Assembly: GCA_902764415.1 (NCBI GenBank) | Contig: CACWVU010000004.1 | Location: 15,758-79,757, forward strand | Direction: 5' to 3' | Origin: an uncultured bacterium | GTDB lineage: Bacteria > Verrucomicrobiota > Kiritimatiellia > RFP12 > UBA1067 | Length of the DNA: 64,000 bases | Shown: positions 1 to 60,390 of the stretch, piece after piece | Layout of the letters: the number at the start of each line of letters is the position of its first letter | Position numbering within the stretch: the first letter of the stretch is position 1 | Made by a program: the position numbers and the translations under genes | The notes under the pieces: model-generated | Told to the model about the DNA's origin: nothing | What the model saw: the letters and a program-made list of their open reading frames with translations, nothing else | The model's database searches: none

Positions 1-398
1 CTCGAGGAGACAAGCTTCATCCCCGGCGCGGTCTTGATGATCTGCAGGGCGGGACGGAGCATGTCGCCGGTCGAGTGGACCGCGCCGGACACCAGCCCGT
101 CGGCCTCGCCCTCCTTCACCATCATCATCCCGAAGTACATCGGGTCCGCCACCAGCTTCGCCGCGCCCTCCTCGGTGAGCCCCTTCGCCCGCCGAAGCTC
201 GTAAAGCGCCGCGGCATAGCGCCCGCGCCGCTCCGCATCCGCCGCGATCCCCGCCGGAGTCAGCAGCACCGGCTCCGCCAGCCCCTCGGCGCGGATTACC
301 TCCGCCGCCGCGATGGTGCGCTGCTCGTCGCCCTCCGGCAGCACGATCCGCCGCCGGTCCGCCCGCGCCTTGGCTCGGATTGTCTCTGTCAAACCCAT
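1..398 (-). CDS. pta: phosphate acetyltransferase / phosphotransbutyrylase family, N-terminal part; the gene runs off the window at position 1
   Basis: Minus-strand ATG at 396-398 preceded by AGGAGG. Translation MGLTETIRAKA...GAVHSTGDMLRPALQIIKT matches the Pta/Ptb signature. Absent from the ORF track because it is truncated by the window edge. Confidence 0.8.
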   Translation of the reverse strand, partial: MGLTETIRAKARADRRRIVLPEGDEQRTIAAAEVIRAEGLAEPVLLTPAGIAADAERRGRYAAALYELRRAKGLTEEGAAKLVADPMYFGMMMVKEGEADGLVSGAVHSTGDMLRPALQIIKTAPGMKLVSS

Positions 399-3759: not shown

Positions 3760-4364
3760 CTTGATGCTTCCTTTCTCATACTTGAAAATCCGTCCGCTCC
3801 TTCGCCGGCGAGAATCCGCCGCGCCTCCGCGAGCGCGCGGCCGCGGTGGGAGATAGCGTTCTTCTCGGCGGCGGAAAGCTCCGCGAAACTCTTCTCGAAG
3901 CCGTCCGGCACGAAGAGCGGGTCGTAGCCGAAGCCCTCCGCGCCGCTCGGCGCGAGGGCGATGCGGCCGAAGACGCGGCCGAAGACGACGTGCTCGCGGC
4001 CGTCTGGCCCGACGAGCGCCACCGCGCAGGTGAAGTTGGCGCGGCGGTCCGCGACGCCTTCGAGGTTCTTGAGGAGAAGCGCGTTGTTCGCGGGCGTGTT
4101 CGTCGGCTCGCCCGCGTAGCGCGCGCTCCTCACCCCCGGCGCGCCGCCGAGCGCGGCGACCTTGAGACCGGAATCGTCCGCCATGCACCACTCGCCGCGG
4201 TGTCGCGACGCGATCGCCCGCACCTTTATGAGTGCATTGCCGGCAAAGTCCGGCGCGTCCTCCACGACGCCAGCGGGGTCGTCGGCGACGATTTCGAACT
4301 TCGGCAGGATCTGGGAAATCTCGCGGAGCTTGTGCTCGTTGTGGGTGGCGACGTAGAGCTTCAT
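3756..4364 (-). CDS. rdgB: non-canonical purine NTP pyrophosphatase (RdgB/HAM1)
   Basis: MKLYVATHNEHKLREI..., GFGYDPLF and AELSAAEKNAISHR motifs. ATGA overlap with the downstream trpB-like gene. Confidence 0.8.
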   Translation of the reverse strand: MKLYVATHNEHKLREISQILPKFEIVADDPAGVVEDAPDFAGNALIKVRAIASRHRGEWCMADDSGLKVAALGGAPGVRSARYAGEPTNTPANNALLLKNLEGVADRRANFTCAVALVGPDGREHVVFGRVFGRIALAPSGAEGFGYDPLFVPDGFEKSFAELSAAEKNAISHRGRALAEARRILAGEGADGFSSMRKEASR

Positions 4365-7064: not shown

Positions 7065-7227
7065 TTTCTTGTCCTCTCCTTGTCTGTTTGTCGCCTGCAG
7101 CGAAACCTTCTGGCGGCGCCGCGACGCCGCGGGGCCGATTGGTGGCAAATAATACCACAACCCGGGCCCCGGAGTCAAGTGCGACTGGTGCCATTTGGGG
7201 CCAACTCATGAATGCGTTGGAAGTGTT

Positions 7228-7266
7228 TCAGCAGCCAGCGGCCAGCGTTCAGCAGCCAGTGCAGTT
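7228..7266. repeat. CAGCAG-type repeat fragment in the divergent fucI / ydbH-like promoter region
   Basis: CAGCAGCCAGCGGCCAGCGTTCAGCAGCCAGTGCAG. Same family as 436-572. Confidence 0.5.
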
Positions 7267-7288: not shown

Positions 7289-7297
7289 TGGTATAAT
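7289..7297 (+). promoter_or_regulatory. extended -10 TGGTATAAT, leaderless promoter of the ydbH-like gene
   Basis: TGGTATAAT + ACACGCC (7 nt) + ATG at 7305. The predicted TSS coincides with the start codon. Confidence 0.55.
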
Positions 7298-7304
7298 ACA
7301 CGCC

Positions 7305-11409: not shown

Positions 11410-12138
11410 TTATACCTCCTCCATCGGCATGGCTATAAAATCATTAAGTTCTTTCCGCAAAATCCTCCAGCGCGGCAATCGCCTGTCCATAAGCTCTACA
11501 AACGCTCTGGAGTGGTTCGACACCTCGAAATGCGTCAGCTCATGTACGACCACATACTCAATGCATCTTGCGGGCACTCTTCCAAGCGCGGCGTTGAAAA
11601 CGATCTTGCCGCGTTTCTTAAGACAACTCGCCCACCGAGTCTTCATCTTCCTAATTTCGGTTTCGGGAAGAGCAAGCTTCAACTTCCTGCACCATCCTTT
11701 CATCTTGCCCGCCAGAGACTCACCCAACATCGCCTTCTGCCATGATTCGACGATCCTCTCCTTATGCCCTCGTGAAGCGCCCTCCCGCACGTACAACGAC
11801 AACTTGTTGCCGCCCCACGTCACCTTTTCCGTCGCATAACGATCTTCCACGACAACCAATAGTTTATACCGGCGGCCAAGACAATAAATGCTCTCTCCGC
11901 TCACATACTCCCGACGCGTCTGGCGAGGCTGGGAAAGAACAGTCTTCCGCTGGTCGCGTATCCAGCCAATCTTGGATGCAAGAAAACTTCTCAAATCGCG
12001 GTCGGAAAGATCATCTGGCGCAGAGACATGCACCCTGGCATCCGGCGGATAGATGGCAAGATGCGTGTGCTTGATCTTCTTTCGCTCGACTTCAATCTGT
12101 ATTCCGGCAACTATCATAGCATCACATCCACGGTTCAT
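11410..12138 (-). CDS. YgjP-like metal-dependent hydrolase (DUF45 / M48 family)
   Basis: HELTHFEVSNHS zinc-binding motif. Sits in the classic position downstream of hsdR. Confidence 0.75.
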   Translation of the reverse strand: MNRGCDAMIVAGIQIEVERKKIKHTHLAIYPPDARVHVSAPDDLSDRDLRSFLASKIGWIRDQRKTVLSQPRQTRREYVSGESIYCLGRRYKLLVVVEDRYATEKVTWGGNKLSLYVREGASRGHKERIVESWQKAMLGESLAGKMKGWCRKLKLALPETEIRKMKTRWASCLKKRGKIVFNAALGRVPARCIEYVVVHELTHFEVSNHSRAFVELMDRRLPRWRILRKELNDFIAMPMEEV

Positions 12139-15100
12139 CGCTCATATAGGAATCTGCATCGAACTCACCTTGGTGTTCGACGATCTGATATACGGTAAGG
12201 GGATTGAAGTCCGTGCCCTGAAGCGCATCTTCTATCGCCATCTCGACCTTTCGCCGGCGTATGGCGTTTCTTCGAAAGCCGGGCTTGGCGCTTGCTCCGA
12301 CAGCCTCGAAGACCTTGAGCGCAAGGTCAGCATCGCCGCCCAGGTTGTCGCACAGGCTACGCTTGGCCTCGGTGTCCAGGCGCGGATCTTCAACTGCCGT
12401 GTCGCCTTTCAGTTCCTTGCCCATCTTTGCGATTTCCGCAAGTAGCTTTCTGTATTCAATCTTCTCCTTGCGGTAGTCTTCGAGAAGCCTGTTAATGCGC
12501 TCAGAGAACTTGCGGTACTCGGCAGGGTTGGTCTCTTTCTTTCTGAAGATGTAGCGTCTGACGTTTGCCACAAGCGTTTCCGCGACGCCGCGTTCGCCCC
12601 CGACCTCGGACTCCACGTCGGGATCGACCGACCCTCCATCGTCTTTGTCGATTTTTATCAGATCGAGAAACGAAAGATCCTCGAGGTCGGCGAGTTTCAA
12701 CGCATGCTTGGCCGTGACGAAATTGTCGAGAAGCGATCGCATCTCGGCATCGTAGAGCTTGAGGTCCACGAAATCGCCGGCTCGCTTCATGATCGCCTCG
12801 CGCAGCATGTCGTAGTTGCGCACCTTCTCCTTTAGCGCAGCCGCCTCGGCGGGGGAGTAGCCGGCCTCGTCAGTTTCCTGCGCGATGTCGCTCCAAGCCC
12901 TTACCGCGGCGATGCAGGCCTGGTAGAAGTCTTCCCGCAGCTGCGAATCCCCGGGTCTCTGCGCTTCACCGCCAGGTTCTGCGCCTGGGCGCGTGCCGTT
13001 CTGCGCTTCGTCGCGTGCGATGAAGTAATCGCAATACTCATCGATCCCCTTCGGCGGCAGTACCGGTTCCGAAAGAATATCGCACCGTTCAAGAGCTGCT
13101 TCAAGCGCCTTGCGACCTTCTTCAAGCCGTCCCTTGAGGAGCCCCTCTACATCTTCTTTCTCAAAGTTCTTGAACGCGCCGTTGGTGTAGTCTTTGACTG
13201 CGCCCCTTATGCTCTCAAAGAGATGTTTGTAGTCGATGATGTAGCCATAGCGCTTTTTCTCCCCGTTTAGCCGGTTGACGCGGCAGATGGCCTGGAAAAG
13301 GTTGTGGTCTTCCATCTTCTTGTCGATGTAGAGATAGGTTGCGGGCGGCGCGTCAAAGCCGGTCAGCAGCTTGTCAACCACAATCAGCAGCTTCATCTTC
13401 GCCGGATGCTCGACAAACTCCTTCTTCGCCCATTCTTCGAAATCTTCGGGCGATTTTTCTCCGCGCATAGCAAGGTTCATCCTGTGCTTGTACTCGGCTT
13501 CGGTAAGCTGCTCGCCGGTGAACGCCTCGGCAAGACTTGGCTCGTCGCCACCGTAGCTCGTCACTACGGCGCAATGATCCTTCAGCGGCGAGAGAGCGTC
13601 GCTGAACATCGCCCAAAACCGATATGCCTGATACACCGACTCGCAAACCAGCATCGCATTGCCCCATCCGTCGCGGAGCGCTGGCTTGAGCCCCATGTCC
13701 ATGCAGATGTCGGTGACAATACGCTGTACGCGCTCTTTCGCCGAAAAGAGATTCTGCATCCGCGCCCAGCGCTTCTTCAGCTCTTCCTTCTTGGCGGGAA
13801 GAAGGTTCTTGGTCTTATGTTCGAAAATCGAGTCGAAAGTCACGTCTTCGGCGAGGTTCTGCTCGATGTCGCGCGCCTCATAGCGCAAATCAAGCACGAC
13901 GCCGTCCTCTACCGCCTCATCGAATTTGTAGGTGTGGATGAACGGCCCGAAATTGGCATAGCTCGTAAGCACTCCCTTCTCGCTTTTGAGAAGAGGCGTT
14001 CCCGTAAAGCCGATCAGCATTACATCTGGCCCCATGATCTTCTTCATCGCCAAGTTCATCACCCCGCCTTGCGTGCGGTGGCACTCGTCAACGAAAACGA
14101 AGATATCGCCCTTCGCCTTGAAGCCCAGCGGCAATTTCTCGGCAAGCTCCTTCAAATAAACCGCAGCCGACCTTTCACCCCGCAATCTGCGCTCGCGAGC
14201 ATCAAGCTTCTCCTTGGACCCATTCGCGCCAAATTTGTGAATCAGTGTTGTAATAAGCCGTTCACGCGATTTGTTCAACGTTGCTATCAAGTCGGCGCCA
14301 CTTGTCGCGCGATATGGCTTCTCGCCGGCCTCCTTGAAGCCGTTTGTAATCTGCTTGTCGAGTTCGTCGCGGTCGGTGATTATCACCACCCGCGCATCGG
14401 GGCGATGTTCCTTGATCCACTGCGCAAGCCAAACCATCGTAAGCGACTTGCCGGAGCCCTGCGAATGCCAGATGATGCCCGACTCCTTGCGCATGATGCG
14501 AGGCTTCGCCGCCTCCAGCGCAAAGAACTGTGCAGGTCGCATAACCTTCTTCACACCGCCGTCAAAGACGATGCCGTCGTGTATAAAGGCCAGCAACCGC
14601 TCCTTGTCAAGCATCTGTGCAAACGAGCGGTCAACGAGCGGCTTTATCTCCGCTTTGCTCCACCTCGGCACGGCGCACGGATTGCCACAAGGCTCTTTCC
14701 ACTTCAGCCAGTGTTTCTCAGGGGTGAGCGTCGTCGCATACTTCAGACCCTCAGATTCGTTGCCCGCCATCAGCAGCTGCGCAGCGGCAAAAAACGCCGG
14801 TATCTCCCCCTCTTGCTGATTGCGGTAGTTCTGGCGAATTCCCTCGGCCACGCTCACATTCGCCTTCTTTAGCTCGATCACGCAAAGGGCAATGCCATTC
14901 ACCCAGATCACGACATCAGGCCGGCGATGGCCGTTTGCCGCGACCTGCCGCCTTACAGTCACCTCCTCGGCTATGGAGAAGTTGTTTTCGAGCGGGTGTT
15001 GCCAGTCGATGAAATAAACCTGTTTCATCGGCTTCCCGGGCTCGGTCGCAATCGACATCGGGTATCTGAGGGTCAAATACACTTCTTTGTTTACGTTGTA

Positions 15101-15376
15101 GAGGTCGGCCTGGCCCGGGCATGCCATGCGCTTCGCGAGCTCGGCTATTGCACGGTCGGCACATGCGGGCTCTAGCTTTTGCTTGCAGACAAGGAACTCC
15201 TTCAGCGCCTGGCGGTCAAGGCAAGAATTCTCTCTTTCCGAAAGATCGCCCAGATAATCATAGCCAAGCTTTGTTCGCAATAGTCCAATGATGCGATCTT
15301 GAACCGCTCGTTCGGAGGCAACCACAGCGCCCGCGCCGTGGAACGAAACCTCGCCTTCAACCTTATCGTTTTGCAT
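12122..15376 (-). CDS. hsdR: type I restriction enzyme R subunit
   Basis: HsdR_N-like N-terminus, SF2 helicase motifs (GSGKSLT, FVDECHRTQGG), 1084 aa. Confidence 0.9.
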   Translation of the reverse strand: MQNDKVEGEVSFHGAGAVVASERAVQDRIIGLLRTKLGYDYLGDLSERENSCLDRQALKEFLVCKQKLEPACADRAIAELAKRMACPGQADLYNVNKEVYLTLRYPMSIATEPGKPMKQVYFIDWQHPLENNFSIAEEVTVRRQVAANGHRRPDVVIWVNGIALCVIELKKANVSVAEGIRQNYRNQQEGEIPAFFAAAQLLMAGNESEGLKYATTLTPEKHWLKWKEPCGNPCAVPRWSKAEIKPLVDRSFAQMLDKERLLAFIHDGIVFDGGVKKVMRPAQFFALEAAKPRIMRKESGIIWHSQGSGKSLTMVWLAQWIKEHRPDARVVIITDRDELDKQITNGFKEAGEKPYRATSGADLIATLNKSRERLITTLIHKFGANGSKEKLDARERRLRGERSAAVYLKELAEKLPLGFKAKGDIFVFVDECHRTQGGVMNLAMKKIMGPDVMLIGFTGTPLLKSEKGVLTSYANFGPFIHTYKFDEAVEDGVVLDLRYEARDIEQNLAEDVTFDSIFEHKTKNLLPAKKEELKKRWARMQNLFSAKERVQRIVTDICMDMGLKPALRDGWGNAMLVCESVYQAYRFWAMFSDALSPLKDHCAVVTSYGGDEPSLAEAFTGEQLTEAEYKHRMNLAMRGEKSPEDFEEWAKKEFVEHPAKMKLLIVVDKLLTGFDAPPATYLYIDKKMEDHNLFQAICRVNRLNGEKKRYGYIIDYKHLFESIRGAVKDYTNGAFKNFEKEDVEGLLKGRLEEGRKALEAALERCDILSEPVLPPKGIDEYCDYFIARDEAQNGTRPGAEPGGEAQRPGDSQLREDFYQACIAAVRAWSDIAQETDEAGYSPAEAAALKEKVRNYDMLREAIMKRAGDFVDLKLYDAEMRSLLDNFVTAKHALKLADLEDLSFLDLIKIDKDDGGSVDPDVESEVGGERGVAETLVANVRRYIFRKKETNPAEYRKFSERINRLLEDYRKEKIEYRKLLAEIAKMGKELKGDTAVEDPRLDTEAKRSLCDNLGGDADLALKVFEAVGASAKPGFRRNAIRRRKVEMAIEDALQGTDFNPLTVYQIVEHQGEFDADSYMSDEPWM
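12955..13022. repeat. GC-rich 22-24-bp tandem repeat (GTTCTGCGCYTSGSCGCGTGC x3), in-frame inside hsdR
   Basis: Same repeat family as 16015-16112 and 16276-16322. Encodes ...GAEPGGEAQRPGDSQ... Confidence 0.7.
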
Positions 15377-22626: not shown

Positions 22627-23997
22627 TTATTCTCCTTTCAACCTTGTCTTACCCGTCAGCAGTTCCTGCATCATGCCGGATTTGATGCGCTCGTATTTCG
22701 CACAGTCGGCCTCAAGCGCCGCAATCTCCGCATCCATGTCTGATACCACCGCCCCAATCGCCTTCTGCTCGGCAAGAGTGGGGAAAGCAAACGCCAACCC
22801 TTCAATATCCTTTGCATTCAAATTGTTGATTGCCGACCCAGTAAGGATATCATCCAACTGCCGCCGGTAACTCTGTGATTGAAGCAGATATCCCACAAAG
22901 CATGAATCAACACTTTTTACACATCGAAATACAGCCATAAAAGCACCAAAAGTAGCTACCTCCGCTTTATGCCATACTGCCGCCTTACCAACAAGGTTTC
23001 TACTGCCGTTTGCGGCACAAATGAGTATATCCCCTTCAGTCAACTGCTGACAACCTGCTATACACTCATTCATCACATACAAAACATCATGGCAAATGAT
23101 CTGGTTGTCTTGAATATTATTAGCTCTAAGTAGCACTGTGGCGTTTGGCATTAACGTAAGTGATGATTGCTCTGGCCTGAAACTAACACCTCTAATCGAT
23201 TCACCGATCCCTCCCAGCCGCTTCACCTCCCAATCCACGGGAATGGGGCCAAGTTCAGTCTGCTTGAACTCGGCGCGTGCTGCGCCAAACCCCGGCAGGC
23301 GGGTTTTGCCGGTGAGGAGCTGCTGCATTGCACCAGTCTTGATGTTACGCTTTTTCTCGATGAGTTTCCCCAACGCCGAAATCAACTCATCGACATCCGA
23401 CAACGCCCTCGCGATCCTCCGCTGCTCGGCGAGAGGGGGAAGAGGGATTTCACTTCGCGAAAGATCGCCTATACTTATACTTGCTTGGTTAATAGCTATT
23501 TTAGCCAGCTCGCGTGCCTTGCTCCTCATGGGGGATGATGAAAGAGCATAATACAAATAGTTTGCATTGGCACTTTCGTTACACCGCAAGAGCAGAAGAT
23601 TCATCCCATGATATAACAGCTCCTTGCCATCATATAATGCAACATTCCCAATGTATGGCAAACTATTTATGTGGCTAAACAGGATATCACCGTTGCTCAA
23701 CATATAATCAGCGGGCGGCGCATCTTTTACATAACCAACGCGAGAATAATTCACAACGCCTTTTGAGATTGTCTCAATTCGAGAAATCTTATAAGAGCCA
23801 CGATTACACACCGAATAAGTAAATCCATTTTTTATTCGTGTGCAACATTCCCCCAGCCGCTTCACCTCCCAATCCACGGGAATGGGGCCGAGTTCGGTCA
23901 TCTTGAACTCTGCGCTCTCAGCGGTCTCTGCGTGAGGTTTTTCCCCGCCCGTAGCATTAGAACCGAGTTCAGCCTTTCTTGATTTCGGCGGCTTCAT
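22627..23997 (-). CDS. hsdS: type I restriction-modification specificity subunit
   Basis: Two target-recognition domains, each preceded by the conserved repeat ...TELGPIPVDWEVKRLGE... Confidence 0.9.
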   Translation of the reverse strand: MKPPKSRKAELGSNATGGEKPHAETAESAEFKMTELGPIPVDWEVKRLGECCTRIKNGFTYSVCNRGSYKISRIETISKGVVNYSRVGYVKDAPPADYMLSNGDILFSHINSLPYIGNVALYDGKELLYHGMNLLLLRCNESANANYLYYALSSSPMRSKARELAKIAINQASISIGDLSRSEIPLPPLAEQRRIARALSDVDELISALGKLIEKKRNIKTGAMQQLLTGKTRLPGFGAARAEFKQTELGPIPVDWEVKRLGGIGESIRGVSFRPEQSSLTLMPNATVLLRANNIQDNQIICHDVLYVMNECIAGCQQLTEGDILICAANGSRNLVGKAAVWHKAEVATFGAFMAVFRCVKSVDSCFVGYLLQSQSYRRQLDDILTGSAINNLNAKDIEGLAFAFPTLAEQKAIGAVVSDMDAEIAALEADCAKYERIKSGMMQELLTGKTRLKGE

Positions 23998-25087: not shown

Positions 25088-27421
25088 TTACGGTTTAGCG
25101 ACCTTCGCCACTATCCCCATCTCTACGAGGTGCGCCATTACCTTTCCGCGCAGGGCGGCGACATCGGCCTCGAGCGATGCGAGCGGCCTGTCGTAGCGTT
25201 CAGCGAGTGCCTTTACCTCTGCGGCGATTTGCGAGAGCGTGCGGTCAAGCTCTGCGTCGAAACGGCGGTGTAGTTCCTCTGCCCACTTGTGATGAACGAC
25301 GAGAGTCTTTACATCATCTCCTGTAAGTTCCTCGTAGATGCTCTCGATCTCCCATGCAAAGCGCCTGTCGTCCTCGCGCAGATCTTTCTTGAATAACGCT
25401 ATGCTTTTCTTTAGCTTTTCGACCTCTTCGGGCATTTCATCATCTTCGCCAAGCCCTTCGGTCAATTCGGCGAATTGCGATTCAAGGCCTTCAAGCTCTT
25501 CGACGCGCTCCAAATAGCTCTCGTATGTTTTTGCGCACCGCCCTTTTGCCACGACTTCAGGCGGCAAAAGGTCGCACTGAAGGTCGCGCCAGCCATACGA
25601 TTTCTTCTTGGGTTTTACGAGCCTGGCCTGCCAGCCATCGCGGCAGATAAGATAGCAATCATCTTGCATAGTCTCCGCCCAGTAGTTCATCAGATGTTCG
25701 TATAGGGCGTAGGGGGATGCCAGAGATTGGCTCGCACGCGAGCCAGCGCAGGACAACGCGGGCTGGCGCAAAAGTTCTTCGCCCCATTCTGCGATAATTT
25801 TCTTTGGCTCGGCACCGCGCTTGAGGCCAAGCGCCTTGCGCGTAAAATCGCCAAGCCACCGCGCACAGGCGTTCTCAAACGCATCTATCTGCCCGGCCAT
25901 TTCATCACCCTCTCGCAATTCGCCAACAATCTCTTCCTTGGGCAACGCGAGCTTTACAAAGCCCTTGCGAAGCGGCTTAAAGAGACACGCTGGGTATTTC
26001 GCCGCCTCGTCGACCGGGATACCACCCTTTAGATGGGATGTAAGATTCTGCCGAACTTCCTTGTCGGATGGTGCGACATAGCGCGGTATGTTGAGGTTGT
26101 AGTCGTTTGCCTCAATGTCGGCATACTTCACGAACTGCGCGTAGTGTGGCACGTTCTCGCCGGCGTTCCAGACGTCGACAATGCGCCTTACGTCGCTTTC
26201 GCGCAAGCGGTTCTTCGCGCCATCTTTGGCAAAACCATCTTTGGCATCGATCATAAAGACACCCTTCGATGCCGTCGCGCCTGCTTTATCGAGCACTATG
26301 ATGCAGGCGGGGATGCCCGTGCCGAAGAAAAGGTTTGGTGGCAACCCGATGATGCCCTTTATCCAATGGTGGCGCACGATGTACTTGCGTATCTCCGCCT
26401 CGGCGTTGCCACGGAACAAAACGCCATGCGGCAGAATGACGGCGGCGCGTCCGCTCGGTTTCATCGACTTCAGGATGTGCAGCAAGAAGGCATAGTCGCC
26501 GCACTTCGGCGGTGGCATGGGCGCGACCCCCTCGCCATGCCCCCAGCGCCCGAAGCGATCCTCTTCGCTCGCGCCCTTGAGCCAGCTCTTGACGGAGAAC
26601 GGAGGATTGGCAACGACATAGTCGAACGTGCAAAGCTCGCGGTCGTTGCGCTTGTGCAGGGGATCGGTCAACGTGTCGCCGTGCCTGAGGTCTGGATCGT
26701 CCACGCCATGTACGACCATCGACATGCGCGCCATGCCGATTGTGGCCACGTCCTTTTCCTGGCCTTGTATGGCGACACCCCCTTTCGCCTCCGCCGCCGC
26801 GCGAAGAAGAAGCGACCCGGACCCGCAAGTCGGATCGTAGATCGAAATCATCCTGCGCTTGTCGTCGCCGATGCCGATCACCTTCGCCATTACGCGGCTA
26901 ACTTCGGCGGGGGTGTAGAACTGCCCCTTCGACTTGCCCGACTGCGTGGCGAAGTTTTTCATCAGGTACTCGTATGCGTCGCCGATCAGGTCGTCGTCGG
27001 CAGCGCGGTTGTTAGAGAAGTCGAGGTCTTCGTCCTGGAACACGCCGATGAGTCCGCTCACCGTGTCGACGAGGTCCTTGCCCTTGCCAAGCTTCGTCTC
27101 GTCCGCGAAGTCGGCGTTGTTGACAACGCCTTCAAGGTCGTTCGCGGAGGCGATCTTGGCGAGGATCACATTCACCTTCTCGCCAATGTCCTTGCTGCCC
27201 TTGAGCTGGACAAGGTCGTCAAAGCTGCAGCCCTTCGGTAGTTCTATCAAGAGCGACTTGTCGCCCGATTTCTTCTTGTCGCTCAGGTACTTGATGAACA
27301 GCACCACCAGCACATAGTCCTTGTACTGGCTCGCGTCCATTCCGCCGCGCAGTTCGTCGCATGCTTCCCAGAGCTTTGAATATAGCTGTGATTTCTTAAT
27401 TGCCATCGCTGATACCTCCAC
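25088..27421 (-). CDS. hsdM: type I RM N6-adenine DNA methyltransferase subunit with a long coiled-coil C-terminal extension
   Basis: HsdM_N-like N-terminus, SAM motif, VVANPPFSVKSW (NPPF). 777 aa. Confidence 0.9.
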   Translation of the reverse strand: MEVSAMAIKKSQLYSKLWEACDELRGGMDASQYKDYVLVVLFIKYLSDKKKSGDKSLLIELPKGCSFDDLVQLKGSKDIGEKVNVILAKIASANDLEGVVNNADFADETKLGKGKDLVDTVSGLIGVFQDEDLDFSNNRAADDDLIGDAYEYLMKNFATQSGKSKGQFYTPAEVSRVMAKVIGIGDDKRRMISIYDPTCGSGSLLLRAAAEAKGGVAIQGQEKDVATIGMARMSMVVHGVDDPDLRHGDTLTDPLHKRNDRELCTFDYVVANPPFSVKSWLKGASEEDRFGRWGHGEGVAPMPPPKCGDYAFLLHILKSMKPSGRAAVILPHGVLFRGNAEAEIRKYIVRHHWIKGIIGLPPNLFFGTGIPACIIVLDKAGATASKGVFMIDAKDGFAKDGAKNRLRESDVRRIVDVWNAGENVPHYAQFVKYADIEANDYNLNIPRYVAPSDKEVRQNLTSHLKGGIPVDEAAKYPACLFKPLRKGFVKLALPKEEIVGELREGDEMAGQIDAFENACARWLGDFTRKALGLKRGAEPKKIIAEWGEELLRQPALSCAGSRASQSLASPYALYEHLMNYWAETMQDDCYLICRDGWQARLVKPKKKSYGWRDLQCDLLPPEVVAKGRCAKTYESYLERVEELEGLESQFAELTEGLGEDDEMPEEVEKLKKSIALFKKDLREDDRRFAWEIESIYEELTGDDVKTLVVHHKWAEELHRRFDAELDRTLSQIAAEVKALAERYDRPLASLEADVAALRGKVMAHLVEMGIVAKVAKP

Positions 27422-31734: not shown

Positions 31735-31781
31735 TTCTGCCTTCCTTTCGTTTTAGTTCTTCAGGAATTTTATTTACGCGT

Positions 31782-31790
31782 ATTATACCA
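31782..31790 (-). promoter_or_regulatory. extended -10 TGGTATAATACGCG upstream of mscS
   Basis: About 45-nt leader to the mscS ATG. Heptamers CACGAAT/CACGAAC lie immediately upstream. Confidence 0.5.
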
Positions 31791-31818
31791 TATCTGCGGT
31801 TCGTGATTCGTGATTATA

Positions 31819-32052
31819 AACTCCGATCCGTAGGGCTCTCGCTACCGCTCCGCAGAATGGTCGATGCTTCGCATTTGACATTCGTCTTACACGGCCATAC
31901 TGACCTTATTTTATATCTGCGGCTTCGCCGCAGGGGGCTCATGGGGTCTGGGGCGGAGCCCCAATTAAAAAACAAAGTCATGATATCATCAGTATTGGGG
32001 TTGGCAGATGCGAAGCTGCGGAGCGGTAGCGGGAGCCCCAACCATCGGAGTT
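31819..32052. repeat. structured repeat element with about 45-bp terminal inverted repeats, copy A (MITE-like or structured RNA)
   Basis: Ends AACTCCGATCCGTAGGGCTCTCGCTACCGCTCCGCAG ... CTGCGGAGCGGTAGCGGGAGCCCCAACCATCGGAGTT. Core TTTTATATCTGCGGCTTCGCCGCAGGGGG. Hairpin TGGGGCGGAGCCCCA. Second copy at 51958-52227. Confidence 0.75.
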
Positions 32053-32062
32053 CCAACTATCC

Positions 32063-39941: not shown

Positions 39942-39950
39942 ATTATACCA
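39942..39950 (-). promoter_or_regulatory. extended -10 TGGTATAAT, leaderless rnf operon promoter
   Basis: TGGTATAAT + ACCGCCC (7 nt) + ATG of rnfA. Confidence 0.55.
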
Positions 39951-39976
39951 AAATTTCGCGGCGGCGGCGGAAGAAT

Positions 39977-46183: not shown

Positions 46184-46207
46184 TATTCGGGGGGAGCGTG
46201 GTTAGTA

Positions 46208-46355
46208 TTCAGCAGCCAGCAGCCAGTATTCAGCAACCAGTAATAAGGATGAATCGTCCTCATCCCACTGGAAGCTGATCACTGGCTGCTGGTTGCTGGC
46301 TGCTGGCTGCTACATTAGTGTTCAACAGCCAACAACCAGTATTCAGCAACCAGTG
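46208..46355. repeat. CAGCAG-type inverted-repeat element, copy 3
   Basis: CAGCAGCCAGCAGCCAG...core TAATAAGGATGAATCGTCCTCAT...CACTGGCTGCTGGTTGCTGGCTGCTGGCTGCT...CAACAGCCAACAACCAG. Confidence 0.7.
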
Positions 46356-46357
46356 AT

Positions 46358-47893
46358 TTAGAAGAACAGGTCGCGTTCGCCGCGGCAGGTGGCCTCGTAC
46401 TGCTTCATCACCGCCGGGTAGAACTTCGGCACCCACTCCTTGATGCCGGCGAGCTCCTTTTCGATCAGCGCGTCGCCAAGGCGGCGCGTCTCGTCGGACG
46501 CGAAGTCGTCCAGCCATTCCCGGAAGGTCAGCACCGCGTTGATCTTGCAGAACTTCCCCTCCCGCCCGGTCTTCAGCGCGTCCATGATGCAGCCGCCCGT
46601 CCGTCCGCAGCGGTAGCCGGCGGTGCAGAACGAGGTGATGATGCCGCGCGAGGCGAGGTAGCGCACCATCTCGTCGAGCGAGCGGTTGTCGCCGAGCATG
46701 AACTGCTGGCGGTCCTTGTCCTGCTGCGCCTCGTTCGCGAAGTCGCTGTAGCCCTTGATCGCGATGTTGGAGGAGCAGTCGAGCTGGGTCATGCCGCAGC
46801 CGAGGACGCGGTTGCGCGACTCCGGGCTCTCGCGCGCGGTGATGATGATGCCGGTGTAGGGGACGGAGAGGCGCGCGATGACGACGATGCGCGCGAAGGT
46901 CTCGTCGTCGATCAGCCACGGCGACTCCTCCGGCACCTTCGTGCCGCTCGCCGGCTCGAGGCGCGGGAACGAGAGGGTGTGCGGGCCGATGTTGAACCAG
47001 CGCTCGAGGTCGCGTGCGTGCATCACCGTCGCGAGGAGCTCGAACCGCCAGTCGCAGAGGCCGTAGAGGACGCCGAAGCCGACGTCGTCCACGCCCGCCT
47101 CGAGGCAGCGGTGGAAGCAGGTGACGCGCCAGTCGTAGTCGCCCTTCACGCTCCACTTCGGGTGCATCGACTCGTAGAGCCGCCGGTTGTACGTCTCCTG
47201 AAACACCTGGAAAGTGCCGATGCCCACCGACCGCAGCACCTTGAGGTCGGCCACGGGCAGCGGCGCTGCGTTCACGTTGACGCGCCGGATGCCCACCGGC
47301 GCGCCTGTCTTCGGCGCCCTGACCTGGTGGCGGTAGCAGGTCTCGATCGTCTCGGCGATGTACTCGGTGGAGGTGGTCGGGTGCTCGCCGTAGACGGCGA
47401 TGAGCCGCTTGTGGCCGATGCGCCCGGCGAGGACGTCGATCTCCTCCTTGAGCTCGTCCATCGTGAGGACGCGGCGCTTCTGCTCGCCGTTGCCCTCGCG
47501 GAAGCCGCAGTAGCGGCAGCCATTGACGCAGAGGTTGGACATGTAGAGCGGAGCGAAGACGACGATGCGGTTGTCGTAGACCTTGTGCTTGATGCGGTCC
47601 GCCGCCGCGCGCATCTCCTCGAAGAGCGCGGGGTCGGCCGACGCCGCCATCAGCGCGGCCGTCTCCTCGGGCTGAAGCGTCTCGCAGGACGCCTCCGCCT
47701 TGGCGATGATCTCCCTGACGCGCGCCGGGTCCGCCGGCTTCGCCGCGATCTCGTCGATGCAGCGCGAAATCCGAGCCTCGTCGATGAAATGCCGTCCGCC
47801 GGGGAGGTAGCGCTCCACCTCCCCGCGCACGACGAAGTTCCTGCGGTAGTCGTCCGCGTCCTTGAATTTTCTTATGCCTGAACAGTCTGCCAT
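46358..47893 (-). CDS. radical SAM enzyme of the ThiH/HydG family (likely the [FeFe]-hydrogenase maturase HydG)
   Basis: YDNRIVVFAPLYMSNLCVNGCRYCGF N-terminal cluster motif. A C-terminal extension with CTAGYRC..GRTG..C resembles the HydG auxiliary-cluster region. 511 aa. Confidence 0.7.
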   Translation of the reverse strand: MADCSGIRKFKDADDYRRNFVVRGEVERYLPGGRHFIDEARISRCIDEIAAKPADPARVREIIAKAEASCETLQPEETAALMAASADPALFEEMRAAADRIKHKVYDNRIVVFAPLYMSNLCVNGCRYCGFREGNGEQKRRVLTMDELKEEIDVLAGRIGHKRLIAVYGEHPTTSTEYIAETIETCYRHQVRAPKTGAPVGIRRVNVNAAPLPVADLKVLRSVGIGTFQVFQETYNRRLYESMHPKWSVKGDYDWRVTCFHRCLEAGVDDVGFGVLYGLCDWRFELLATVMHARDLERWFNIGPHTLSFPRLEPASGTKVPEESPWLIDDETFARIVVIARLSVPYTGIIITARESPESRNRVLGCGMTQLDCSSNIAIKGYSDFANEAQQDKDRQQFMLGDNRSLDEMVRYLASRGIITSFCTAGYRCGRTGGCIMDALKTGREGKFCKINAVLTFREWLDDFASDETRRLGDALIEKELAGIKEWVPKFYPAVMKQYEATCRGERDLFF

Positions 47894-47907
47894 GGTGATG
47901 GGTGCGT

Positions 47908-47916
47908 ATTATACCA
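47908..47916 (-). promoter_or_regulatory. extended -10 TGGTATAATACGCACC, near-leaderless promoter of the radical SAM gene
   Basis: 14 nt between the -10 and the ATG. The heptamer array lies immediately upstream. Confidence 0.5.
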
Positions 47917-47924
47917 CTTTTTGG

Positions 47925-48046
47925 GGTTCGTGGTTCGTGGTTCGTGGCTCGTGGTTCGTGGCTCGTGGTTCGTGGCTCGTGGTTCGTGGCTCGTGGGGCG
48001 GGGCTCGTGGTTCGTGGCTCGTGGGGCGGGGCTCGTGGGGCGGGGC
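47925..48046. repeat. tandem heptamer array (GTTCGTG / GCTCGTG alternating, about 15 units, degenerating into GGGGCGGGGCTCGTG)
   Basis: Seen directly in the sequence. Occupies the -35 and upstream region of the promoter. Confidence 0.85.
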
Positions 48047-48076
48047 TAGGATTCTAGGCTTCTAGATTTCTAGGAC
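48046..48076. promoter_or_regulatory. CTAG-rich motif CTAGGATTCTAGGCTTCTAGATTTCTAGGAC (second copy)
   Basis: Related to 39314-39337. Confidence 0.4.
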
Positions 48077-48747: not shown

Positions 48748-48825
<78 letters not shown>

Positions 48826-51870: not shown

Positions 51871-51879
51871 ATTATACCA
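51871..51879 (-). promoter_or_regulatory. extended -10 TGGTATAAT, near-leaderless gltA promoter
   Basis: TGGTATAAT + TCACCAGTT (9 nt) + ATG. Confidence 0.5.
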
Positions 51880-51957
51880 AAAACCGTGGCCGTGGCGCAA
51901 ATCGGGTGTGGGGTTCTCGCGGCTGATTTTTCTCACACAGAGACACAGAGGTTTTTT

Positions 51958-52227
51958 AACTCCGATCTGTGGGGCTCTCGCTACCGCTCCGCAGAATAGG
52001 CTATGCTTCGCATTTGATATTCGTCAATACACAGCCACTTTTGCCATGTTTTATATCTGCGGCTTCGCCGCAGGGGATATAGTTCGGGGGTCTGGGGGTA
52101 GCGCCCCCAGATAAAAAACTATGTGCCCTTTGTGCTCTCTGCGTTATAGACAAATGACATGGTACTGGATTGGGGTTGCGAGATGCGAAGCGGCGGAACG
52201 GTAGTGAGAGCCCCAACCATCGGAGTT
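51958..52227. repeat. structured repeat element, copy B
   Basis: Same termini and core as 31819-32052. The hairpin is replaced by CTGGGGGTAGCGCCCCCAG, a compensatory change. Confidence 0.75.
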
Positions 52228-53293: not shown

Positions 53294-53296
53294 GAA

Positions 53297-53323
53297 TCGT
53301 GGTTCGTGGCTCGCGGCTCGCGG
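53297..53323. repeat. short heptamer array (GTGGTTCGTGGCTCGCGGCTCGCGG)
   Basis: Same family as 47925-48046. Confidence 0.6.
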
Positions 53324-53326
53324 GAG

Positions 53327-59751: not shown

Positions 59752-60390
59752 TCACCAGAACTCCCAGTGGTCGGCGAAAACGACGAGGAGGCCGAGGGCG
59801 AGGTTGGTGACGGCGTGGGCGACGATCGCGGCGAAAAGACCGAACCGCCGCGCGACGAGTCCGTAGACGACGCCGGCCACCGCGCCCACCGCCCAGCGAT
59901 CGCCATGCTCGACGGCGAAGAGCGCCACCATCCACCAGAATCCGGCGAAATCCACCAGCCACCGGCGGAAGAAAAGCTCCTCCGCGGCGGAAATGACGAA
60001 CGCACTCGCCGCCAGCTTCGCAAGCGTCAGCGCCCAGCCGCAGACCTCGGGCGAATACGGCGAATCCGCCGCGGAAAGCGGCGCGGCGGCGGGGACGCCG
60101 GGGAACGAGCCGAGCCAGAGCTCGGGCGCGATCCAGACGACGAAGACGAGAAGGCCGGCGAGAACGGAGAGGGCGTGATTCGTGGTTCGTGGTTCGTGGT
60201 TCGTGGTTCGTGGTTCGTGACTCGTGGTTCGTGGTTCGCGGTTCGTGGGGAGAAATGCGATGAGCAACGCGGCGGTAACGGCGCCGCGGACGGCATACGC
60301 CCAGGCGGTCGCGGGCAGCGTGACCATCAGCGCCATCCAGGCCGCGTAGGGGGCGACGAGGGCCACGCTTCTCTTCGCTCCGTCCGTCAT
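59752..60390 (-). CDS. CPBP (CAAX) family intramembrane metalloprotease
   Basis: AAEELFFRRWL (the EExxxR motif) and FxxxH. Contains an in-frame heptamer array encoding (HEPRTTN)3. Confidence 0.75.
   Translation of the reverse strand: MTDGAKRSVALVAPYAAWMALMVTLPATAWAYAVRGAVTAALLIAFLPTNREPRTTSHEPRTTNHEPRTTNHALSVLAGLLVFVVWIAPELWLGSFPGVPAAAPLSAADSPYSPEVCGWALTLAKLAASAFVISAAEELFFRRWLVDFAGFWWMVALFAVEHGDRWAVGAVAGVVYGLVARRFGLFAAIVAHAVTNLALGLLVVFADHWEFW
60170..60235. repeat. heptamer array (GTTCGTG x about 9) in-frame inside the CPBP protease gene
   Basis: 63 nt = 9 heptamers = 21 codons. Gain or loss of one unit would shift the frame. Confidence 0.8.

Follow-up and report, generated by a model that had tools for sequence, protein, structure and literature searches.

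The window analyzed here comprises 64,000 nucleotides of contig CACWVU010000004.1 from an uncultured bacterium of the Kiritimatiellia, and it carries two copies of an intergenic foldback repeat, the subject of this study. Copy A (31819-32052, 234 bp) lies between mscS and rpoN, and copy B (51958-52227, 270 bp) lies between the citrate synthase gene gltA and a gene for a GDSL-ABM protein. All four flanking genes are on the minus strand, and both copies are in the + orientation. Each copy occupies the gap that separates the stop codon of a minus-strand gene, 10 nt away, from the promoter of the gene that follows. The TGGTATAAT boxes near the copies read on the minus strand, from 31790 to 31782 at A and from 51879 to 51871 at B. 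A sequence-only reading made earlier had reported both copies with these coordinates, their shared arms and core, and their position between the preceding gene's stop and the next promoter; all of this was confirmed, the placement being read on the minus strand.

The two copies share a 28-nt core, TTTTATATCTGCGGCTTCGCCGCAGGGG, which is exact in both and was not seen in 100 shuffles. The 23-nt arm core GGGCTCTCGCTACCGCTCCGCAG occurs four times at up to 3 mismatches, twice per strand, and likewise 0 times in 100 shuffles. The inverted arms are 37 nt long with 86-89% complementarity. In copy A, the left arm spans 31819-31855 (+; 29/37 columns invariant in 18 copies) and the right arm, identified by arm-core matches and complementarity, spans 32016-32052 (-). 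In copy B, the left arm, placed by arm-core matches, spans 51958-51994 (+) and the right arm spans 52191-52227 (-), with 3 mismatches to the consensus. Each copy folds as a single long hairpin (z = -8.9 for A and -9.5 for B versus shuffles), and the G+C content of the element is ~50%, against ~68% for host DNA. Two smaller hairpins lie inside, all on the + strand. Hairpin 1 (CTGCGGC-TTC-GCCGCAG) is at 31917-31933 in A and at 52057-52073 in B. Hairpin 2 is at 31948-31964 in A (CTGGGGC-GGA-GCCCCA(A), its closing pair broken by A31964) and at 52092-52110 in B (CTGGGGGT-AGC-GCCCCCAG). Copy B and about half of the family, but not A, hold an optional internal block of CTCTGYG heptamer-like repeats (52119-52156, +); its reverse complement, the block GATTTTTCTCACACAGAGACACAGAGGTTTTTT, flanks copy B at 51925-51957 (+) and also flanks the locus L042. 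The unit has no coding potential: copies differ by indels whose lengths are not multiples of 3, and the sole open reading frame (ORF) across copy A (31814-32056, minus strand, 80 aa) is not conserved.

A scan with the exact arm pattern across one genome per species identified 70 loci in 25 assemblies, with 146 arm termini. This genome-wide census bears out the earlier claim of a genuine repeat family with terminal inverted repeats, whose arms measure 37 nt. Nearly all of the assemblies with loci are metagenome-assembled genomes (MAGs) from rumen or gut labelled Kiritimatiellae, Lentisphaerae or Verrucomicrobia, and homologues of the window's citrate synthase are named Kiritimatiellae. RUG11534, a near-conspecific of the window, holds at least 18 loci, all with different flanks, among them the orthologues of copy A (L008) and copy B (L054), whose flanks are 92-98% identical. 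Unit sizes across the family range from 160 to 420 bp, and other subfamilies share the arms while their interiors differ. No match to the element was found in viral contigs, plasmids or phages, and a full-text literature search pairing Kiritimatiellae with MITE (short for miniature inverted-repeat transposable element) or transposase terms returned no paper. The family is previously undescribed and, as far as sampled, confined to gut and rumen Kiritimatiellae, through which it is spread as small non-coding mobile elements of the MITE type. Two family contigs are in bins of unrelated phyla (L062, labelled Gemmiger sp., and L014, labelled Candidatus Nanosyncoccus), probably because short Kiritimatiellae contigs rich in repeats contaminate these bins; in L062 there is, in addition, a scaffold gap, and one end of an insertion sequence (IS) is duplicated.

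The window's subfamily (sub1) is represented by 21 full-length copies found by nhmmer in differing genomic contexts, most of them in RUG11534. Identity between copies averages only 78% (range 70-87%). From left to right, the unit has the arm AACTCCGATCYGTRGGGCTCTCGCTACCGCTCCGCAG, a GCTTCGC motif, the conserved stretch CATTCGTC..ACACGGCC, a T-run and hairpin 1, whose stem is invariant in 21/21 copies. A variable G-rich spacer ending in GGGGTCT then leads to hairpin 2 (CTGGGGGC-loop-GCCCCCAG), whose loop is hypervariable (2-5 nt), followed by an A-run, the optional block of ~40 nt, a GCGAAGC motif and the right arm. Conservation is very uneven. Across 18 sub1 copies, 25/33 hairpin columns are invariant, compared with 28/127 interior columns outside the hairpins (Fisher p=2e-8), and arms plus hairpins reach 78/107 (p=5e-15). 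The sequence immediately outside the arm motifs AACTCC/GGAGTT is still semi-conserved and inverted-repeat-like; conservation therefore changes at AACTCC, which is not a demonstrated junction.

Intact sub1 relatives carry an extra pair of outer inverted repeats, GTTCTTCAAAGAATTTT... and GYTCTTCGAAGTTTT. In L012, L017 and L050, a sharp boundary 45-46 nt out from the left arm carries the terminus GTTCTTCAAAGAATTT, with unrelated DNA beyond, and the same terminus is present in the window; L003 and L033 have a more diverged outer terminus 44-45 nt out. On the right, the matching inverted end GYTCTTCGAAGTTTT is found at a distance of 43-51 nt from the arm. Among the four elements with both ends, target-site duplications (TSDs) match at 9/9 positions in L017 (TAAAAATCA), 8/9 in L012 (TAAACCGC(A/G)) and 6/9 in L050, and L033 has none. 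A systematic offset scan for target duplications directly at AACTCC/GGAGTT gave nothing consistent. Two other loci, L038 (7618-7895) and L042 (3547-3766), have direct repeats (AAAAAAGCCGGCG and GCTGAGGCTAACGG) whose distances to the unit are asymmetric (42/56 nt and 24/67 nt) and whose length of 13-14 bp exceeds that of a 9-bp duplication; the right flank of L038 resembles the 3' end of 5S rRNA with its terminator.

Further evidence for mobility came from locus A, for which contigs were collected by a metagenome scan with MscS. In L096-L098, the rpoN TAG stop and the mscS ATG are separated by only 38 bp, with flanks 96-98% identical to the window on both sides. In place of the 17 bp of these empty contigs, the window holds 306-307 bp, a complete inserted block (31756-32061/2, or 31756-32062 at its longest) that is absent from the closely related contigs L096/L098. 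Hence the element boundaries taken from the sequence-only reading delimit a repeat unit within a larger insertion. The mscS-side edge of the block falls exactly on G31756, the first base of the outer terminus GTTCTTCAGGAATTTT (31756-31771), which the relatives had defined independently. The left outer arm of copy A (31756-31818, +) contains this terminus, two heptamers GTTCGTG/ATTCGTG and an extended -10 box TGGTATAAT at 31782-31790 (-), directed outward toward mscS. On the rpoN side, just 10 nt of outer arm remain (CCAACTATCC, 32053-32062, +), which abut the rpoN stop and match the beginning of the right outer arms in L029, L064 and L017 (TCAACTATCCC...); the second copy of the duplication and about 16 bp of target are missing. 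The filled allele is found almost invariant in L008 and in nine further contigs (L086-L094), and no contig with the window's exact MscS lacks copy A. Copy A is thus an insertion polymorphism, absent from near-identical contigs. An all-against-all BLAST of the flanks of the 70 loci yielded no empty site, as expected given how those loci were collected, and an arm match upstream of a mscS homologue (L103/L105) was spurious, lying inside coding sequence.

Taken together, these data indicate, with a probability of roughly three in four, that the repeats are copies of a non-autonomous, non-coding foldback MITE family, related to an IS4-like insertion sequence, in gut and rumen Kiritimatiellae. The sequence-only reading had opposed selection on structure to a plain MITE with clear TSDs. 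The data lie largely on the side of the MITE, with 9-bp duplications in two intact relatives and an empty allele at A.

The relation to an IS emerged from the arms themselves. In L062, arms of the family flank a 438-aa DDE_Tnp_1 protein (Pfam, 6e-12) with weak IS701/IS4 matches; the NCBIfam IS4/IS701 equivalog models give it about 40 bits versus cut-offs of 150-170. More than 2,600 relatives of this transposase were found. Those at 66-69% identity belong to a compact IS of ~1.55 kb bounded directly by CTGGAGTTTACCCATTTTTT, without AACTCC arms. In relatives at 77-86% (L079-L085) and in L062, the order is outer terminal inverted repeat (TIR) CTGGAGTTTACCCATTTTTT, ~58 nt, arm, promoter, transposase gene (tnp), arm, ~100 nt and outer TIR. 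We therefore rejected L062 as an autonomous IS bounded by AACTCC repeats, because the 66-69% relatives end at CTGGAGTTTACCC without arms and the ends of the closer relatives lie outside the arms. The IS termini are CTGGAGTTTACCC; most IS copies are on contigs of 1.5-3 kb, and L079, the sole copy with readable flanks, has a 9-bp TSD (GAAATGTCA) at its outer ends. CTG tips and 9-bp duplications are hallmarks of IS10/IS50-type elements. With its DDE_Tnp_1 transposase, 5'-CTG termini and 9-bp duplication, the IS, and the IS only, has the features of the IS4 family.

Two comparisons tie the small elements to this IS. Composites of a second subfamily (sub2) have the same outer arms and TIR as the IS, a hairpin module in place of tnp and TSDs of 9-10 bp (e.g. 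CAGGCGGAC and CTTAGTAGTC); sub2 elements are the non-autonomous form of the IS4-like IS. Moreover, the window arms align with the inner arms of the IS over 54 nt at 83% identity (E=1e-12), showing homology between the inner arms and the inverted repeats that flank tnp inside one lineage of the IS4-like DDE IS. The outer ends of the window subfamily, in contrast, do not resemble CTGGAGTTTACCC, so that the inner unit occurs in two different shells. No IS with GTTCTTC ends was present among the collected loci.

Several observations concern the IS itself. Within the 5' coding region of tnp, the terminal repeat of the element, GTTTACCCATTTTT, occurs once more (L062 4355-4368; L073 478-501; L077 200-216), conserved across lineages that are 66-100% identical. 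In L062, an inverted repeat (4223-4242 / 4271-4290) lets the ribosome-binding region pair with DNA that lies upstream of the tnp promoter (AAAGGAGAAG). IS10 and IS50 have fold-back protection against outside transcription, which this arrangement looks like by analogy. In L073, whose transposase is 85% identical, the positions of the AACTCC arms (158-311 and 1800-1970) hold two unrelated small palindromic inserts with arms of 31 and 36 nt.

Additionally, the subfamilies differ in the orientation of the central two-hairpin module, which is inverted with respect to the arms. When L025, L048 and other sub2 loci are compared with window positions 31909-31975 and 52049-52120, the arms match in +/+ and the module in +/- orientation (E=2e-7). 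Orientation is fixed within each subfamily, and the difference is therefore better explained by one ancient inversion than by flip-flop replication. Flip-flop of the module among strains at locus A was rejected as well, since 11/11 orthologous copies have the same orientation.

Several points weigh against the MITE interpretation. The window copies have one outer end (A) or none (B) and neither has a TSD, so that mobility is inferred from relatives and from a single empty site. At that site, 17 bp of the empty allele are missing from the filled one, which is therefore not a clean insertion, and the direction of change is not polarised by an outgroup. Of the four elements that have both outer termini, only 2/4 show a convincing 9-bp TSD. 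Among the collected loci, no transposase gene lies between GTTCTTCAAAG... ends, and the sole arm-linked transposase uses other outer ends and has distant relatives without arms. In addition, the inner arms are better conserved than the presumably cleaved ends, for which the MITE interpretation has no explanation.

The same features bring in a different possibility, namely that the AACTCC unit itself is an independently mobile or recombining module that leaves no duplication, with the outer-TIR elements and the IS being shells that it has invaded. The unit, with arms 80-90% identical, is found in two unrelated shells (CTGGAGTTTACCC... and GTTCTTCAAAG...) and around tnp, and it fits this idea that conservation is higher in the inner arms than at the outer ends, that distant relatives of the IS lack arms, and that the central module is inverted between subfamilies. 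The unit also holds three GCGAAGC/GCTTCGC motifs. GCGAAGC is the sequence of a hyperstable DNA mini-hairpin (PMC13037366), a hint of a single-stranded DNA form. However, neither a shell without the unit nor a unit with clean boundaries in unique DNA was found, and inverted-repeat-like sequence continues, semi-conserved, just outside AACTCC/GGAGTT. The IS arms are separated by tnp, an arrangement that insertion of the unit could not produce, and no candidate enzyme is known. We regard independent mobility of the unit as quite doubtful. A related proposal, that the unit is a portable cis module acquired by unrelated shells and by the IS4-like IS for its benefit to mobile elements, is doubtful too. 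If true, it would explain conservation above that of the transposon ends, and the module could act through a single-stranded DNA or RNA form in transposition or through insulation from outside transcription.

The difference in hairpin 2 between the window copies had been taken as a compensatory substitution. Our comparison does not support this. Hairpin 2 of A reads CT-GGGGC-GGA-GCCCC-A(A), and that of B reads CTGGGGG(T)-AGC-(G)CCCCCAG; the stem is the same, one G:C pair shorter in A and with a G.U pair in B, and the loops differ. The change is a paired shortening of the G-run and the C-run, and the stem has not been swapped in sequence. The short-stem form is common to A/L008, L042, L053 and L063, of which A, L042 and L053 are mutually closest relatives. 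Since it is limited to one small lineage, the A/B difference represents a single event. At locus A, A31964, which breaks the closing pair, is found in the window and in 8/10 other contigs compared, with G in L008 and L090; this loss in most strains speaks against structural selection at the locus.

Selection on structure was also examined at the level of the family. Within sub1, RNAalifold gave 52 pairs, with double-sided change in 1/52. Between subfamilies, changes are compensatory: hairpin 2 is CTGGAGGA-loop-TCCTCCAG in sub2 and CTGGGGGC-loop-GCCCCCAG in sub1, hairpin 1 of sub2 is shortened on both sides (CTGCC-TTC-GGCAG versus CTGCGGC-TTC-GCCGCAG), and the upstream purine run shifts in step (AGGAGGTCT versus GGGGGTCT). 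In an alignment of 29 distinct hairpin 2 sequences, 96.6% of cells are paired and double-sided change is seen in 3/8 pairs, through ~3-4 independent events; 0/500 shuffles reach its score, and slid controls are only 37-58% paired. G-quadruplex and Shine-Dalgarno/anti-Shine-Dalgarno readings of the purine runs were dropped, as the runs are GGGGG or GGAGG by subfamily and only three runs exist. The hairpins appear to be conserved as structures over the life of the family, which the two window copies alone do not show. The earlier argument for selection on structure consequently stands in part. The constraint on the hairpins (p=2e-8) and the covariation of hairpin 2 across subfamilies favor it, and the single covarying pair within sub1 and the lack of signs of a small RNA do not.

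These stems could mean that the unit is a gene for, or a cis part of, a structured RNA, such as a small or regulatory RNA, whose hairpins are kept by selection on RNA structure. In keeping with this, the stems are strongly conserved with compensatory change between subfamilies, folding of the entire unit is much more stable than that of shuffles (z about -9), and one-sided changes in the arms mostly yield G.U on the + strand, albeit in few independent events. The Rfam check that had been suggested earlier was negative: no family matched either copy at the gathering score, and at E up to 10 the three sub-threshold matches (12-23 bits versus cut-offs of 39-50) were at chance level, the sole Rfam match in the window being a tRNA gene at 48752-48825 (-). 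A scan of both copies on both strands for intrinsic terminators detected no hairpin followed by a U-tract; either strand of the unit reads T-run, two hairpins, A-run. Nor is there a conserved promoter inside the unit, as the single promoter-like site in A lies in a segment that differs in B. Furthermore, covariation within sub1 is restricted to the one pair, copies occur in both orientations relative to neighboring promoters, resident copy A has lost a stem pair of hairpin 2, and the arms of the unit also flank a transposase gene. We consider a structured RNA very improbable.

The position of the copies next to promoters suggests another role. The mobile origin could be correct, but the copies could have been retained by the host, in the manner of REP/BIME or Correia elements, as 3'-end stabilisers or insulators or as donors of outward promoters, with the hairpins under selection at each site. 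Copies are strictly intergenic, usually 37-95 nt from an outward TGGTATAAT box, and in the window both follow a stop codon by 10 nt. Outward promoters on MITE-like elements are documented, for example in BrickBuilt (PMC4596501). In the empty allele of locus A, the 38-bp gap from the rpoN stop to the mscS ATG contains no TGGTATAAT box, and the box of the filled allele lies inside the block; therefore, the only promoter-like box of mscS came with the element, and this holds in every contig with the window's exact MscS. The broader sample gives a different picture. An outward TGGTATAAT-like box lies 37-95 nt from an end in 11/19 independent sub1 copies, one of which has it at both ends, so that it is on the left six times and on the right six times. 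The orientation shared by the two window copies relative to the promoter, which the sequence-only reading had emphasized, is thus a coincidence. In L017, the box is beyond the TSD and hence belongs to the host, and gltA has a native promoter, since relatives that lack the element possess it too; copy B lies ~78 nt upstream of it. The general pattern is insertion into promoter-upstream DNA, with copy A as an exception that carries a box, and proximity mostly reflects insertion preference. Resident copies also decay, as seen in the broken hairpin 2 pair of A and the 3 mismatches in the right arm of B. Retention by the host, which is compatible with the MITE interpretation, is possible, but we consider it unlikely.

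The box TGGTATAAT is a general promoter-like box of this genome. It occurs at 14 sites at up to 1 mismatch in 64 kb, e.g. 31782-31790 (-), 51871-51879 (-), 7290-7298 (+) and 39943-39951 (-), and is often followed by ACGCAC. Several genes start 7-10 nt after it, and gltA has TGGTATAATtcaccagttATG; these short distances suggest leaderless or near-leaderless mRNAs. Tandem arrays of 7-nt repeats (GTTCGTG/GCTCGTG; CAGCAGC/CAGCAAC/CAGTAAC) are also intergenic (47887-48073, 60160-60276, 53294-53324, 433-560, 46202-46366 and 7227-7260). Several lie directly upstream of TGGTATAAT, as at the box 47905-47913 (minus strand), and in other loci the same heptamers stand between many element copies and the adjacent promoter.

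At locus B, the surroundings differ between relatives. In the closest relative found (L179, GltA 98%), pta is 85 bp upstream of gltA. Homology of L179 to the window starts at 51883, and pta-like DNA is at window positions 1-374, ~51 kb away, which places copy B at a synteny break. No empty site was found for copy B: GltA relatives at 84-86% have other upstream genes, and a search through the GDSL-ABM protein found no record of that protein. In its right arm, copy B differs from the orthologue L054 at 5 positions and resembles the paralogue L033 more closely; this hints at ectopic conversion.

Near locus A, a low-G+C island (~9000-31000, 39-58% versus 68%) ends ~900 bp from copy A. It encodes a type I restriction-modification system (HsdR 12122-15376, HsdS 22627-23997 and HsdM 25088-27421), a YobI-like ATPase, RhuM, DUF2806, two AAA_14/DUF4143 proteins and a second N6 methylase. 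Downstream of mscS, gene calls differ between L086-L089 and L090-L094, though L090 is 99.98% identical to the window there.

We return to the family as foldback MITEs and propose the following model. A full element would consist of an outer TIR, ~25-60 nt of subterminal sequence, a conserved inner arm of ~37-85 nt (AACTCCGAT...GCTACCGCTCCGCAG), the hairpin module and the mirror image of these parts, the central module being a pair of GC-rich hairpins with a T-run on one side and an A-run on the other. Elements whose outer ends are intact would transpose in the IS10/IS50 manner, leaving 9-bp duplications, and would be mobilised in trans through these ends by an unsampled relative of the IS4-like transposase. 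The autonomous partner of the window's shell is predicted to be bounded by GTTCTTCAAAGAATTTT ... AAAATTCTTTGAAGAAC, 1-2 kb apart. At locus A, the insertion likely split the 38-bp rpoN-mscS junction with a hairpin of -120 kcal/mol and gave mscS its own promoter. Copy A may then have lost its rpoN-side outer end, the second TSD copy and ~16 bp of target in a later deletion of ~60 bp, and the loss of this end would make it immobile now. The arms and stems may be kept because active source copies require them in cis, and not for a function at the resident site. The uneven conservation would accordingly reflect selection on source copies, because paralogues differ by 13-30% and resident orthologues barely differ and even lose stem pairs. 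Candidate roles for the arms and hairpins include subterminal binding of transposase or a host factor, a single-stranded form (GCGAAGC) and insulation from outside transcription.

Comparison with known systems shows what the family shares with them and where it departs. Like IS4-derived MITEs, the elements are small, non-coding and multi-copy, with terminal inverted repeats, 9-bp TSDs in intact relatives, filled/empty polymorphism and a related IS with DDE_Tnp_1, CTG tips and a 9-bp duplication. Unlike them, the most conserved repeats here are the inner tnp-flanking arms and not the cleaved ends, and no IS was found for the different outer ends (GTTCTTC...) that the window subfamily uses. Inner arms better kept than cleaved ends, one unit in two shells and around tnp, and an inverted module are unusual for bacterial MITEs.

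Correia elements of Neisseria duplicate TA and are 100-155 bp long. Along with BrickBuilt of Porphyromonas gingivalis, they are, like the present family, intergenic and foldback or MITE-like, and can carry outward promoters; there is no sequence similarity, and promoter activity here is inferred from a consensus box only and is mostly that of the host gene. BrickBuilt has outward promoters that can alter the expression of neighbors and a trapped short tandem repeat (PMC4596501), and some copies here hold heptamer-like blocks. REP/BIME and ERIC are, similarly, mosaic intergenic palindromes, often just after stops, that give stable stem-loops in read-through transcripts. The unit described here is longer (160-420 bp), shares its arms with a DDE IS and not with a RAYT-type enzyme, and has 9-bp TSDs in intact copies. 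REP/BIME units are palindromes of 20-40 nt associated with a RAYT (IS200/IS605-like) gene; the size of the present unit and the DDE IS link argue against REP/BIME membership, and no RAYT gene was seen, though no search aimed at one was made. As a structural analogy only, eukaryotic foldback elements and T-shaped parvoviral repeats also combine a long palindrome enclosing two small hairpins with a module in both orientations, but here orientation is fixed per subfamily, there is no Rep/HUH gene, and the setting is a bacterial chromosome.

Kiritimatiellae are abundant, almost entirely uncultured members of the rumen and gut community. The family and its IS4-like relative probably break metagenome assemblies of these bacteria, and polymorphic insertions at the level of strains, as well as at least one synteny break, are marked by the family. 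Once it is annotated, a spurious 80-aa ORF disappears and the "conserved intergenic" DNA that recurs in these MAGs is accounted for. At rpoN-mscS, the change from a 38-bp junction to a 328-bp spacer with a promoter-like box offers a testable case of expression rewiring by a mobile element, and the nested architecture of the family may provide a handle on the parts that such elements need in cis.

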